Shown one piece after another: positions 52,884 through 58,800 of a stretch of 64,000 nucleotides of DNA. The stretch's first letter is position 1. Every line of letters begins with the position of its first letter. The stretch comes from Escherichia coli. Its GTDB lineage: Bacteria > Pseudomonadota > Gammaproteobacteria > Enterobacterales > Enterobacteriaceae. The position numbers are program-made. The stretch is taken from assembly GCF_044324785.1 (NCBI RefSeq), contig NZ_CP172127.1; one strand, 5' to 3'.

Positions 52884-55800
52884 TTATCGTTATGATCTAC
52901 AAAAGCCACCAGCATAACAAATCCGTGGTCGGTGGCAAAAAAAGCAGATTTCGCTTATTAAAACTGCACATTGATTGAAGTTTGAATAAACGCGCGATTT
53001 TTTAAAAAAGTTTGTTGACCTCAGGTCATGATTTCCCTAAATTAGCGCCCGTTCCAGCAAGACAGGAACGACAATTTGGTGAGGTGTCCGAGTGGCTGAA
53101 GGAGCACGCCTGGAAAGTGTGTATACGGCAACGTATCGGGGGTTCGAATCCCCCCCTCACCGCCATCTTTAAAGAAGAGCTCGTACGAAAGTACGGGCTT
53201 TTTTTTCGTATATTGCACACACTGGGGGGATGAGAAGCCCCGACCGGGGGTCGACAACTGGCGACAGCCAGTTGGACAGACCGTGAACGCAGTGAGCGGG
53301 CTGCCCGCAGGGCGAGCGAAGCGAGTCAATCCCCCCTCTCACCGCCATATTTAAAGAAGAGCTCGTACGAAGGTACGGGCTTTTTTTCGTATATTTCACA
53401 CACCGGGGGATGAGAAGCCCCGACCGGGGGTCGACAACTGGCGACAGCCAGTTGGACAGACCGTGAACGCAGTGAGCGGGCTGCCCGCAGGGCGAGCGAA
53501 GCGAGTCAATCCCCCCTCTCACCGCCATATTTAAAGAAGAGCTCGTACGAAGGTACGGGCTTTTTTTCGTATATTTCACACACCGGGGGATGAGAAGCCC
53601 CGACCGGGGGTCGACAACTGGCGACAGCCAGTTGGACAGACCGTGAACGCAGTGAGCGGGCTGCCCGCAGGGCGAGCGAAGCGAGTCAATCCCCCCCTCA
53701 CCGCCATCTTTAAAGAAGAGCTCGTACGAAAGTACGGGCTTTTTTTTCGTATATTGCACACACTGGGTCTCCCCCCCCGCCCAAGTCTGTTAGGGCGAGG
53801 GGTAATCGTGCACATCAACTGTCTGGTTGCTCAGTCAACAATCAAAATGCGCAAGAGAGTACAGAACATATATGCGTTATCTGGTCACTTCCTATAACTT
53901 CCTCACTTATTAAAATGCCCCCAACGGAAATACATGTCACATGCCATCATAAAATCGTTATGCCAGAGGAATCGACAATGGAAAAAATAGTAAATTAAGC
54001 ATGGTACATAGCAGAGTAAAAAATAGACTTCAAACCAAATCCGCCATTCCACAAGCGTTGCCAATACCGACACCAGCGTAATCCACATCACTTCAATAAC
54101 CAGCAATATGAATAACCGAAGCCAAAGCGGCTTGGCAAAAAAGGTCGACAACGCATTTTCACTGGAGAAAAACAGATCAATTTCCTGCAAAAAAAGCCTG
54201 CCCAGAAAAGCGTACCGCTTGGAGAAGCGCAGAAAAAACAGATTAATCGCCAACACTACGCCACAAAGAATGAGCAATGCAATTATCGATTTAAACGTTA
54301 ACCACTGCCCCTCTGTCACAAAAGAATCACTGTTACGCAACGGGCTGATAGTAAGCAGGTTAACAACCGTTGAGATGCACACCGAAAGCAGCACATAGCG
54401 AGTCAGACTTTTATATTTTACCTTTTTCGCCACTGAAATAGCGACCTGCTTGACATAACTGGTGCGGATCATCCGAAACAGCAGAAAGATAACCAACGGC
54501 CCAAGTAACGAAATCAGGAACAGCGCATATAACGAGGGTAGAAGCTGGTATAGCCCCCAACTCATTGCACTCAACATGATTAGCGACAGAAATCCTGCCA
54601 CCAGAGGTTGCGTAAGAAATAATTCTATTTTGTAGTTCTGCTTTTTCTTAAACCACGAAAAATCGATATTCTTCGTGACGCATTTATAAGCCCAGTACGC
54701 CTTGAGATCAAAAATAAAATTATACAGCACCAGGGCCAGAATCCCACTAACGACACCAATATCCTCAGATGGAAAAGTAAACCCTGCATTTTTCCAATAA
54801 AAGCCTATCAGAATAAGTCCAATAGCATAAATGTATATCAGATTTCGTTTATCCTGAAAGCGAATAAAAGTTAAATAATCAGGAATCATTTGAATACCTT
54901 CGCATCACTAAATGCTTTACGACAATGCATAACTCGTTGCTGATCCACGCCAGCAAAATCATTTAACATATTCCCCAAATAGGGCTTATTACTTATTTCA
55001 AGGAAAGCTACCGGGGTTGGCATATTCAGAAATGTATCGAGAGATTCAGTCCATTTCACCGTATGAGTTAAGTGTAATGAGAGATTTTCTTTGATAATTG
55101 ACGGAGCGACCTCGCTTTTTGCTGTTACGTTCATCAGAACCTGATGCTCTGGTGAAGCGATATCCAGTCCGGCAAGATAATCGCGCATTGCCTGAACGCC
55201 GTCTTCCATCAAACGCGTGTGCCAGGCACCGCTCACACCGAGTTTAACCGGTTCGTATCCAGCGGCCATCAGCAGCGTGGCAAATTCATTCAACGCCGCC
55301 TGCGTTCCCCCAATAACCTGCTGGCGCGGCGTGTTATCACAGCTAATATCCAGCGCAATGCCTGATTCCGTAATCATCGTCTGCAGTTGTTCGCGGTTGA
55401 TGCCTTTAACCGCCAGCATTGCGCCTTTATTTCTCTGGCTTTCGTCATGCATCAGGCTGGCTCTGAAGTGAATCATGCCAAATAGCGTCTCAAGAGAAAG
55501 AGCTCCGGCGGCGTAGAGCGCACTGTATTCACCAACGCTGTGTCCGCAGGAGCCCACAACCGTTAAATTCTCAAGACGCTCACGGCAGAGGGTATAGAGC
55601 GTTACATTAATTGCGGTCACCGCCAGTTGTTGTACCGTCGTTTGAATAAGGCGATTCATCGGCCCTTTCTGACACAGGCGACGCAGGTTCAGCCCGGAAA
55701 TATCGCTGGCACAATCCCAGATATGTTTTGTACTGGCATTGAGATCCCAAAGATCGCTGCCCATACCAATAACCGGATTACCCTGACCGGCAAAAAGCAG

Positions 55801-58800
55801 TACTGTCGGTTGTGAAGCATTATTCATCATCTCTTTATCCTTATAGATAGTATTTAAAGCCCAAATAAAGGCCTAACGTGTCGCCAAAAAGCGCAAATTC
55901 GGAGTACCGGCTTCCCAGCGCGCTATAGCCACCGGCATAGGCTTCAAGCTGGTTACTGATAGCGCTGAGCGGCGTGGAATAATGCAGGCCCAGCAACGTG
56001 CTGCCATCAATGAGATTGACCACCAGCGAAGGCTGCAGCGTCGACTCTCCCGCCAGCGGCAGACTGGCCCAGACGTTCAGATAGTGCTTACCCTGCAGCA
56101 TCCCCTGATTGGCGGTATTGCTGATTTCTGAAGCCATCAGGTATTTGTAAGAATCAAATGCCTGATCCAGTGGCGCATAGCCGGTTGTGGTATTGAGGAA
56201 GTCAATTAACTCGCGCTGCTGACGCTGTTCAGCGCGCGAATAACCCTCGCTCTGAAAGTAATACTCAACGCCAAACACGCTGAAATTATCACTGGTGTAC
56301 TGCCCACCCAGCGCCAGCTCCACGCCGCTTTCGTCTTTCGTTTCATAGAGCGAATCCGGAAACTGATATTCCTCGACCTGCGCCGTCTCACGGTGGGAAA
56401 GATGCCGCCATTGTTGGGAGCGGTGGTAGGCTGCGTCGACATTCAGCGTCAGCTGCGGGGTGTAGTGATAACTGTCAGACAGCGCGAGTGACGGCGATGG
56501 CCCGAGCCGCACATTGACTGTCGGCGTGTGCTCACCAAAGCGATGATCGCTGTAGCTCAGCAGATAGGCTTCATCGCTGTTTCCCTGCTGATTAGCCGAC
56601 CAGTTGCCAGACGTCACATAGCGTTTGTCGATGGTGGCTAACTTCGGTATGACGCTCGCCGAAAACGCATAATCGCGTGTATCCACGCTCATTTTTGCGC
56701 CCCACGATGACGCCTGATACGCCGATGTCATTTTGGGATCGTGCAAACGCGTCGACTGGAATCCGGTGTAATAATGCGTTTGCAAATCAGAAGGCGAACG
56801 CAAAAAGAACATTCCTGACGGCGCGGCAAATTTGCCTGCTTCAAATTGAACGCTGTCCGAAGCGCTATAGACCAGACTGAGGCGGTTAATTAACGCACGC
56901 GTGCGGCTATCATCCGTTTCGAATTTCCCTGCGGGTTTCAGCGCATATTCGTTTATTCCATACAGATTGAGCTTAAGGTCCAGCGTATTGTCGATTATTG
57001 AACAACCACTATTGATGCCAATCCCCGCCTCCTGATAACCGTTGTGACGTGTGTAGGGATTTTTGCCTGCAATCTGCCAGGCCGAAGCCTGTTTATTGAC
57101 ATAAGACACCTGCTCGTAAAGCGTCACATCGCTGTTTTGTGCCACCTCGTCACCTGACAGGCAATCCGCCTGTACCGTCAACGGCAGCACAACACACAGC
57201 AACGAAGAGATCTTCAGCGTGCGTTTCATTTCGCACCTCGCTGAATATATTCTTTGGTGAAATGAAACTCCGGCAGCGATTCCAGACGAACATCGCTGTA
57301 CTCCATCACTGAATAGTTATTGCCGTGACGGACATCGGTAACGGTGATTTTCATGGGTCGCGTTTTCCCCAGCACCGGCTGGAAATCCTGATACAACACT
57401 TCTTTTATTAACTGGTCATCCTGCGAATAATAGGCCGCCTTCCACGGGCGATTATCACCGTCTTTTTCAACGTAATAGATAACCTTCGGCCAGGTGATAT
57501 CCGCCGATTTACGCACCAGCGCGAGCTTGTAACACTGCTTTTCAGCACAAGAGACTTCCCCCACCAGGGTCGAGTCATAGGCATATTCAAAGTTAGTGAC
57601 AATGACATCGCCGTTAGAGATTTGCCCAATTAATCTTTGTTGCCGTGAAATAGGCATCGGACGTCGCAATTCCGGCGTGTAAAACCATAAATCGTACCAG
57701 TCGGAAAGCATGATTTTTCCTTTGTCTCGCGGCGGATAAATAAAACGCACCAGCGAGCGTGCATCCGCTTTTTCATTACCCTGCGGTTTCATAAAACGCA
57801 TGGAAATATCGAGGATCTGTTTATTCTCTGGCTGGGTTGCGCCCGCTTTATATTCCGTTACCGTCAGCGTGTAACGAAACGGTTTATTCGGCGAACGAAT
57901 TTCGTCAGCGCGACGAATTATCTCCAGCGCCTTATTATCTGTGCTCGCTGCCTGAACGCACGACGTAGCGAGCCACAGGCAAGCAAACCACTTGCCGTAA
58001 AAAGCCATATTCATAATCAGTCCTACGAGAATTTAAATGCGTCAGAAATATTCAGCCGGGAAGCACGTAAAGCCGGTAACACAGAGGCTCCTGTTGCTGT
58101 CAAAATGGGTAATACCACCGTCACCCAAATCAATTCCGGGTTACTGGTTTTTATAAAGGCGGTATAGCCGATGGTTTGTCCAGGCGATGGCGGCATCGCA
58201 ATACCATAAAGATTAATAATCCAGGCTAGCACGCCCCCCACCATCAGGCTACCGACTGCGCCAATCACACCAATAAAAATACCTTCCGTCAGAAACAAGC
58301 GCGTGACATGAAGAGGCTTCAGACCTATGGCACGCAGAGTGGTTATTTCACGGGTGCGCTCAACAATGTTCATTGCCATCGAATTGCCGATCATGAAGAT
58401 GACAATCAGCGCAACAATCAGCTTGATGAAGAAATAGATCCCCGACAGTAACCCCTCAACCTGTTGATAAAAGAGTGAAACATCACGCCAGTCTTTGACC
58501 ACCAGCGGCAAATGATTGCGTTCTATAAACTGACGCAGCTTCGCGCTAAACGCCGCGGTGTCATCCTCTTTAAGCAGAATAAGCACTTTGCTGACGCCAT
58601 CCGTACCCATCATGCGCTGCGCAGTGTCCAGCGGGATCTTCATCGCGACATCGTCATAATCTTTAATGCCTGACTCAAAAATGCCACGCAGTTTTAGCGA
58701 CAATGCGCCCTGCCCGCCCGCCGTGTTGACCACCATCACATCCAGCCAGTCGTCGTATTTCGCATTCAACGTTTTCGCCAGACCGCTGCCCAGGGTGATT

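Follow-up and report, generated by a model that had tools for sequence, protein, structure and literature searches.

ycdU and an intact acyltransferase gene as the probable 3' end of a fatty-acid/polyketide-type cluster in Escherichia coli, reduced by IS3 in K-12

In Escherichia coli K-12 the membrane-protein gene ycdU lies beside a gene fragment, ymdE, and a copy of the insertion sequence (IS) IS3, and the locus raises the question of what the fragment once was and whether ycdU is an orphan. We addressed this with a stretch of 64,000 nt of E. coli DNA (RefSeq assembly GCF_044324785.1, contig NZ_CP172127.1; hereafter the window) in which the neighbour of ycdU is a complete acyltransferase (AT) gene. 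An initial annotation had proposed that this AT is full length with FabD-type motifs and overlaps the ycdU start, that K-12 holds an IS3-interrupted fragment of the same gene, that the window shows the ancestral intact state and that ycdU is the terminal gene of a lipid operon. We consider it very probable that the AT gene and ycdU form the 3' end of the fatty-acid/polyketide-type cluster of O-island 47 (OI-47)/S-loop 71, and that the K-12 state arose by an IS3 deletion. The features central to this argument are listed here by window coordinates.

54886..55830, minus strand: intact AT gene, predicted to encode a 314-aa discrete acyltransferase of the FabD/Acyl_transf_1 superfamily (open reading frame (ORF) listing, Pfam, NCBIfam and residues)
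53903..54889, minus strand: ycdU, predicted to encode a 328-aa polytopic inner-membrane protein, the final gene of the cluster (ORF listing, homology and synteny)
54886..54889, minus strand: ATGA overlap of the AT stop codon TGA and the ycdU start codon ATG (read from the sequence)
54897..54900, minus strand: AAGG, a putative Shine-Dalgarno-like element within the AT coding sequence, 7 nt 5' of the ycdU ATG (from sequence only)
55229..55230, no strand: site equivalent to the K-12 IS3D junction (blastn against the MG1655 locus and junction sequence)
55414..55415, no strand: site equivalent to the E. coli W-type IS3 junction (blastn and junction sequence)
55061..55062, no strand: approximate site equivalent to the IS1-bounded truncation of strain SMN197SH3 (sequence match and locus inspection)

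Judged by its matches, the AT gene is a real, intact gene and no chance ORF. The product matched Pfam Acyl_transf_1 (PF00698; 2.5e-25) over residues 12-290, and its 314 aa represent the full length because orthologues in other genera have 307-315 aa. All four catalytic residues are present, namely Gln16 (GQG, residues 15-17), the nucleophile Ser98 (GHSVG, residues 96-100), Arg123 and His204 (AWHT), and they align with their equivalents in PksC and DisD; the enzyme looks catalytically competent. The gene has 98.5% DNA identity to ECs_1297 of O157:H7 strain Sakai, from which it differs synonymously in 9 codons and non-synonymously in 3. Against NCBIfam fabD (TIGR00128) the protein scored 1.6e-52 and 178.8 bits, which does not reach the equivalog cut-off of 260.9, and its best solved relatives were PksC (5dz6; 1.3e-32) and DisD (3sbm; 5.6e-32), with E. 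coli FabD (1mla) at 2.7e-22. By these scores it is a member of the FabD superfamily and not the housekeeping FabD orthologue. In strain N3, the closest complete genome (99.6%), the AT gene is otherwise full length and is annotated as frameshifted (locus L002, 20984-21924; 1927 versus 1928 aligned bases), which could reflect either a real inactivation or a sequencing error.

In K-12 strain MG1655 the order is dgcT, IS3D (1094245-1095502), the pseudogene ymdE (b1028), ycdU (b1029), serX and ghrA. Aligned by blastn with this locus (L001), the window matched it without a break from the ghrA side across ycdU up to 55229, where the match ended beside the end of IS3D. The K-12 junction reads ...GGGTAAGATCA followed directly by GTGCCTGGCACACG, which is the IS3 terminal repeat and then AT codon 201. 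K-12 therefore retains the 3' 344 of the 945 nt of the AT gene, with codons 1-200 gone and with them Gln16, Ser98 and Arg123. The stub is collinear and in frame with the window gene (2 synonymous and 0 non-synonymous differences), and DNA identity across ycdU and the final 344 nt of the AT gene is 98.7%. The K-12 locus has the same place, orientation and ATGA overlap as that of the window, but is without the upstream island and has IS3D at the break, whereas the window holds the AT gene in full, with no less than the final 10 kb of the cluster. The window contains no IS3, and its sequence is uninterrupted across both 55229/55230 and 55414/55415, so it carries the intact allele. The proposal that the K-12 neighbour of ycdU is a fragment cut by IS3 thus proved correct on alignment: the locus is the same, K-12 has no identical intact gene, and ymdE abuts the IS3D repeat exactly.

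What K-12 has lost can be read from Sakai, which the window matched at 98.0% identity over 10,308 bp (53693-64000), reaching the window end. The gene order is the same in both: a double ketosynthase (KS-KS), a second ketosynthase (KS), a protein of no family, a LolD-like protein, a further protein of no family, then LolC/E-like, LolA-like and 462-aa proteins, the AT and ycdU. In the window the cluster genes upstream of the AT gene are tightly packed on the same strand, either overlapping or lying about 13 nt or less apart, and are given here outward from the AT gene.

55841..57229, minus strand: 462-aa signal-peptide protein of no family, directly upstream of the AT gene (ORF listing)
57226..58014, minus strand: 262-aa LolA-like (Pfam TP_0789-like) protein of lipoprotein-sorting type (PF17131 in orthologues)
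58023..59333, minus strand: 436-aa LolC/E-like (MacB/FtsX-type) permease of an ATP-binding cassette (ABC) system (NCBIfam lolCE, 3.4e-26, below cut-off)
59334..59990, minus strand: 218-aa conserved protein of no family inside the transporter block (conserved position in loci of other organisms)
59974..60768, minus strand: LolD-like ABC ATPase (NCBIfam LolD, 1.1e-67, below cut-off)
60692..61645, minus strand: 317-aa conserved protein of no family, labelled 'ATP-binding protein' in strain N3 (annotation and NCBIfam scan)
61642..62931, minus strand: beta-ketoacyl synthase-family protein (NCBIfam KS-family matches at about 1e-17)
62870..64000, minus strand: 3' part of the KS-KS gene, whose full 852-aa form continues past the window end (collinear at 98-99% with Sakai and N3)

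Three conserved cluster proteins (462, 218 and about 317 aa) are thus without any family, the 462-aa protein having no NCBIfam match. The counterpart of the LolA-like protein in strain N3 is annotated as 'outer membrane lipoprotein-sorting protein', and orthologues of the LolC/E-like permease carry Pfam MacB_PCD and FtsX. RefSeq annotations have a shorter form of the LolD-like ATPase (235 aa) and a 407-aa form of the ketosynthase at 61642..62931.

After dgcT, Sakai continues with ECs_1272 (a cyclic di-GMP phosphodiesterase), grvA, a fimbrial operon and a two-partner secretion pair, followed by AcpS, a ketoreductase (KR), a dehydratase (DH), an acyl carrier protein (ACP), a GcvT-like protein, KS-KS, KS, the transporter block, ECs_1297 (the AT) and ycdU. 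From just past dgcT to the K-12 breakpoint this amounts to about 31.7 kb, which IS3D replaces in K-12. Since O-island 47 was described as 31,727 bp spanning z1528-z1556 (PMC8565820), a size that the Sakai distance matches, the right-hand boundary of OI-47 would fall inside the AT gene. OI-47 has been equated with S-loop 71, with loc6 fimbriae, the otpAB secretion pair and 'fatty-acid synthesis genes' as its contents (bioRxiv 10.1101/2020.04.13.038984). The island lies between dgcT (ycdT) and serX, and the window belongs to it by collinearity with Sakai ECs1272-ECs1297, the dgcT-proximal two-thirds being outside the window.

Further truncated alleles point to the direction of change. In E. coli W the left IS3 junction is identical to that of K-12, 11 nt past the dgcT stop, and the right junction lies at AT codon 139, with 529 nt kept. 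In SMN197SH3, the single genome with a shorter stub that was inspected and the source of the IS1 boundary, IS1 adjoins an AT remnant of about 176 nt; also gone are pgaA, pgaB and part of pgaC. In HS-01 an IS3-bounded deletion has left 46 nt of ycdU, and dgcT, pgaA, pgaB and part of pgaC are lost. IS-mediated deletions recur, with several endpoints, in the dgcT/pga-to-ycdU region, which is a hotspot for them.

Because the left junction is common and the right endpoints are nested, as expected of one-sided adjacent deletion by an IS, the truncated alleles would derive from an OI-47-bearing ancestor. Read from these junctions, the intact AT state is ancestral to the K-12 and W-type lineages, and it is for these lineages that the proposal of an ancestral window allele holds. 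We give almost no credence to the reverse order, in which the K-12 state is ancestral and OI-47 was gained by insertion in O157-type strains. That order would accord with the listing of OI-47 among the O157 islands unique relative to K-12 (PMC8565820) and with its presence in just 7% of complete genomes. An insertion, however, cannot create a gene whose 3' third is already present at the target, and the 344 nt in K-12 are collinear, in frame and end exactly at the IS3 inverted repeat. The nested endpoints at 529, 344 and about 176 nt, of which the first two share a left junction, count against it as well, as does laboratory evolution, in which the same K-12 IS3D produced an adjacent deletion of 26.5 kb from the element through ymdE to pyrC (PMC8611074).

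The distribution of the alleles was determined by megablast in 5426 complete E. coli genomes. The ycdU/AT region was matched in 2667 of them and gave no megablast match in the other 2759. Intact versions do occur elsewhere in the species: the 5' part of the AT gene, and with it the full gene, was found in 389/5426 (7%), mostly O157:H7 and O55:H7, with scattered other carriers (N3, O169:H41, one O78 and one enterotoxigenic E. coli). The middle segment was present in 1116 genomes, and ycdU with a truncated AT (3' stub) in about 2280. Derived counts are about 727 genomes for the W-type allele and about 1551 for the K-12-type or a shorter stub.

Goldstone et al. (2016) suggested that the truncated ymdE of K-12-type strains yields a still functional protein, reporting its conservation in phylogroup A and evidence of its transcription (PMC4951805), and the remnant shows no frameshift or nonsense decay. 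That absence of decay also fits a recent deletion, given DNA identity of about 98.7% to the window. The remnant begins at codon 201, has no native start and is without Gln16, Ser98 and Arg123, and cannot be an acyltransferase; we hold a functional ymdE product to be highly improbable.

The link between ycdU and the cluster was sought outside E. coli. In 9/9 foreign loci an Acyl_transf_1 gene is immediately followed, in the same orientation, by the gene of a YcdU homologue, and the same type of cluster precedes the pair in all eight whose contig reaches further 5' than the AT gene. The genes downstream of the YcdU homologue differ in all nine. By YcdU identity, the foreign loci were L011 (74%), L012 (64%), Mixta (55%; L004, L005), Kosakonia (46%; L006, L007) and Klebsiella aerogenes (39%; L008, L009), together with L013-L015, which were found by profile only (E = 4e-23, 3e-22 and 7.5e-9); upstream of the AT gene, the contig of L015 holds a single partial gene before it stops. 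The gene of the 462-aa protein stands directly 5' of the AT gene in 7/8 upstream-extending loci. It is missing from L014, a metagenome contig with a distant YcdU homologue, which is also without the LolA-like gene and has kept the AT-YcdU pair; this pair may form a functional unit more tightly knit than the outer-membrane export part. A profile search among 1.84 billion proteins returned 70 YcdU representatives, and every context checked was AT-adjacent. By this strong comparative evidence ycdU is the conserved terminal gene of a lipid/polyketide-type cluster and no orphan, in line with the initial annotation.

That ycdU might instead be an independent backbone gene, next to the island by chance in E. 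coli and with an incidental ATGA overlap, is quite improbable. It is formally 'backbone' in that OI-47, as defined against K-12, ends within the AT gene; it is intact in about 2280 cluster-less genomes with few non-synonymous changes; and ymdE-ycdU was found enriched in mastitis isolates (Goldstone et al., PMC4951805). Chance adjacency is contradicted by the AT-adjacent position in nine of nine non-E. coli loci with different flanks, by the cluster upstream in eight of these and by the small size and uniform context of the family, and the endpoint of the one-sided IS3 deletion accounts for the presence of ycdU in K-12-type strains.

How tightly the two genes are joined in expression was considered from the overlap. 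The plus-strand tcat at 54886-54889 is ATGA on the minus strand, where the AT gene ends AAA TGA and ycdU begins ATG ATT, as had been described. The same 4-nt overlap is annotated for K-12 ymdE/ycdU and occurs in foreign locus L011, and translational coupling of the two genes in Escherichia is plausible from this overlap alone. Across the foreign loci the AT-YcdU spacing ranges from -4 to +34 nt, with gaps of 10, 10, 1, 1, 5, 34 and 21 nt where the genes do not overlap. Prediction placed no sigma-70-like promoter within the 3' region of the AT gene ahead of ycdU, and a promoter/terminator scan gave no convincing ycdU-specific promoter or terminator, its numbers being near the shuffled expectation.

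The cluster as a whole (Sakai L010, 23613-38406) comprises AcpS, KR, DH, ACP, a GcvT-like aminomethyltransferase, the fused KS-KS, the second KS and a LolCDE/LolA-like export set; no enoyl reductase or thioesterase is annotated in the Sakai cluster. Literature searches with the locus tags z1555/z1556 and ECs1296/1297, with 'vmpA/O-island 47' and with the cluster content returned no characterisation of the cluster product. Aryl-polyene and similar clusters of type II fatty acid synthase-like kind have discrete KS, ACP, KR and DH and a LolA-like protein with a membrane exporter, which in aryl-polyene clusters is of MMPL/RND type. The present cluster is alike in its discrete KS/ACP/KR/DH and in its LolA-like protein with an exporter, which suggests an envelope-targeted lipid. 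It differs in the GcvT-like aminomethyltransferase, the fused KS-KS, the LolCDE-like ABC system and YcdU. An aryl-polyene identity, which we had first suspected, was dropped because the annotated gene content is unlike that of such clusters.

A comparable mixture of likeness and difference holds for the AT. With PksC (bacillaene), DisD (disorazole) and FabD it has in common the Acyl_transf_1 fold family and the motifs GQG, GHSxGE, Arg and xAxH(S/T), and like discrete ATs of the PksC/DisD type it is free-standing and would serve carrier proteins encoded elsewhere in its cluster. Trans-AT polyketide synthases (PKSs) are modular megasynthases, from which the cluster differs by its discrete type II-like ACP, KR, DH, KS-KS and KS. 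A dedicated membrane-protein gene after the AT gene also sets the arrangement apart; we know of none after the genes of PksC, DisD or FabD. In FabD the conserved Arg binds the carboxylate of malonyl, and this Arg is replaced in known acyl-hydrolase-type ATs.

We propose that the AT would load malonyl from malonyl-CoA onto the cluster's own ACP, which the cluster AcpS would activate, and that KS-KS and KS would extend the chain together with KR and DH, the product being exported by the LolCDE/LolA-like proteins. ycdU would share a transcript with the AT gene, probably with translational coupling between the two, and YcdU might take a late inner-membrane step in which it accepts or transfers the acyl product or else passes it to the exporter. 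IS3 would have inserted 11 nt downstream of dgcT and then given rise to one-sided adjacent deletions; the deletion leading to K-12 would have taken out about 31.7 kb together with the AT active site, and ycdU would persist there as a relic without its pathway.

A different role for the AT was weighed, that of a proofreading acyl hydrolase or a chain-releasing (off-loading) transferase, with YcdU moving the finished chain to a membrane acceptor. The gene does stand at the cluster end beside a membrane-protein gene, away from the ACP and KS genes, and its product is nearer to trans-AT PKS enzymes than to FabD and scores under the fabD cut-off. We nevertheless regard this role as unlikely, since the AT has retained Arg123 at the position where PksC and DisD have their Arg, both of these enzymes are deposited as malonyl-CoA:ACP transacylases, and the Sakai annotation gives no second AT in the cluster.

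Several points tell against malonyl loading by the AT and a coupled, cluster-bound YcdU, and temper that proposal. The closeness of the AT to trans-AT PKS enzymes and its sub-threshold fabD score belong here too, and malonyl as its substrate is suggested by the conserved Arg123, the AWHT motif and the relatives PksC and DisD. Operon membership and coupling are argued from spacing and synteny, and because the overlap is not conserved, translational coupling is no family rule; with spacing as variable as the loci show, coupling by overlap is, on the sequences compared, not a trait of the family. The intact ycdU in more than 2000 genomes without the cluster, with mostly synonymous differences, may point to an independent function. 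Finally, YcdU has no informative solved fold relative, and the pathway step assigned to it is a guess.

YcdU itself offers few handles. The window protein is 98-99% identical to the E. coli YcdU clusters, and it had no credible Pfam or NCBIfam family, the lone match being a spurious one of 25 residues to PSII_Ycf12 (0.001). An AlphaFold2 model built with 35 homologues was all-helical, with a predicted local distance difference test (pLDDT) score of 87.6 and a predicted template-modelling (pTM) score of 0.85. Foldseek against AFDB50 matched solely uncharacterised YcdU-like proteins, one of them under a 'DUF975' label; distant matches came from Providencia, Paraburkholderia, Verminephrobacter and Desulfatitalea, with template-modelling (TM) scores of 0.8-0.87 at 15-22% identity. 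Over the 35 homologues 24 columns are invariant, and the invariant polar residues include R10, Q12, N34, R142, H310, D318 and R322. In the C-terminal region Trp309-His310 and Asp318 are invariant and Asp312 nearly so. We suggest, as a tentative and rather doubtful idea, that YcdU represents a small, structurally unprecedented inner-membrane family that is an obligate partner of a dedicated AT in an envelope-lipid/polyketide pathway with its own Lol-like exporter. If true, YcdU could for instance be a membrane enzyme for attaching or passing on the ACP-bound product, Trp309-His310, Asp318 and Asp312 could form a catalytic site, and the K-12 ycdU would be a stranded relic.

Two further observations concern the ycdU gene. 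Its G+C content (window 54000-54999) is about 41%, versus 47-55% in the adjacent cluster genes and backbone. At window positions 54314-54331, inside ycdU, stands TGTCACAAAAGAATCACT, unchanged from K-12, where PMC10294691 lists it as an intragenic PhoB binding site of ycdU.

On the other side of ycdU the locus is closed by a tRNA gene.

53078..53165, plus strand: serX, tRNA-Ser(GGA), convergent with ycdU and marking the operon-side end of the locus (ARAGORN; Rfam tRNA, 53.8 bits)

Between serX and ycdU stand three tandem RtT-RNA-like units of about 180 bp (53210-53706, plus strand) within a repeat block at about 53147-53767. They scored 29.7-34.6 bits against Rfam RF00391 in a permissive search, the gathering score being 45, and at the gathering threshold Rfam did not call these repeats. 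Copy number varies by strain, with one unit in N3 and Sakai, about three in K-12 and the window, and six annotated in E. coli W. An ORF of 196 aa with repeated peptides (53169-53759, minus strand) is an artefact of the repeats. In Sakai the 86-kb element SpLE1, with an integrase, is inserted at serX directly past ycdU (L010, 38599 onward) beside a single RtT-like unit, whereas the window, with about three units, has no SpLE1 element or integrase at serX.

The main claim, IS3 truncation of a gene with a 945-bp full-length form, is already known: the foreshortening of MG1655 ymdE by IS3 and the 945-bp version in other phylogroups were published in 2016, with ymdE-ycdU treated as a unit (Goldstone et al. 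2016, PMC4951805), and PMC5635171 likewise sets out the K-12 layout of the locus. Linking ycdU to the cluster by synteny across genera adds modestly to this, and the current understanding is not majorly changed. For K-12 the annotation is tidied, ymdE being the dead 3' third of the cluster AT gene and ycdU the last gene of the OI-47 cluster. OI-47, usually called O157-specific, would at its AT-side boundary be missing from K-12 through IS3-mediated deletion and not through a gain in O157. The function of YcdU would be better studied together with the cluster, in OI-47-positive strains, Kosakonia, Mixta or Klebsiella aerogenes, than in K-12.

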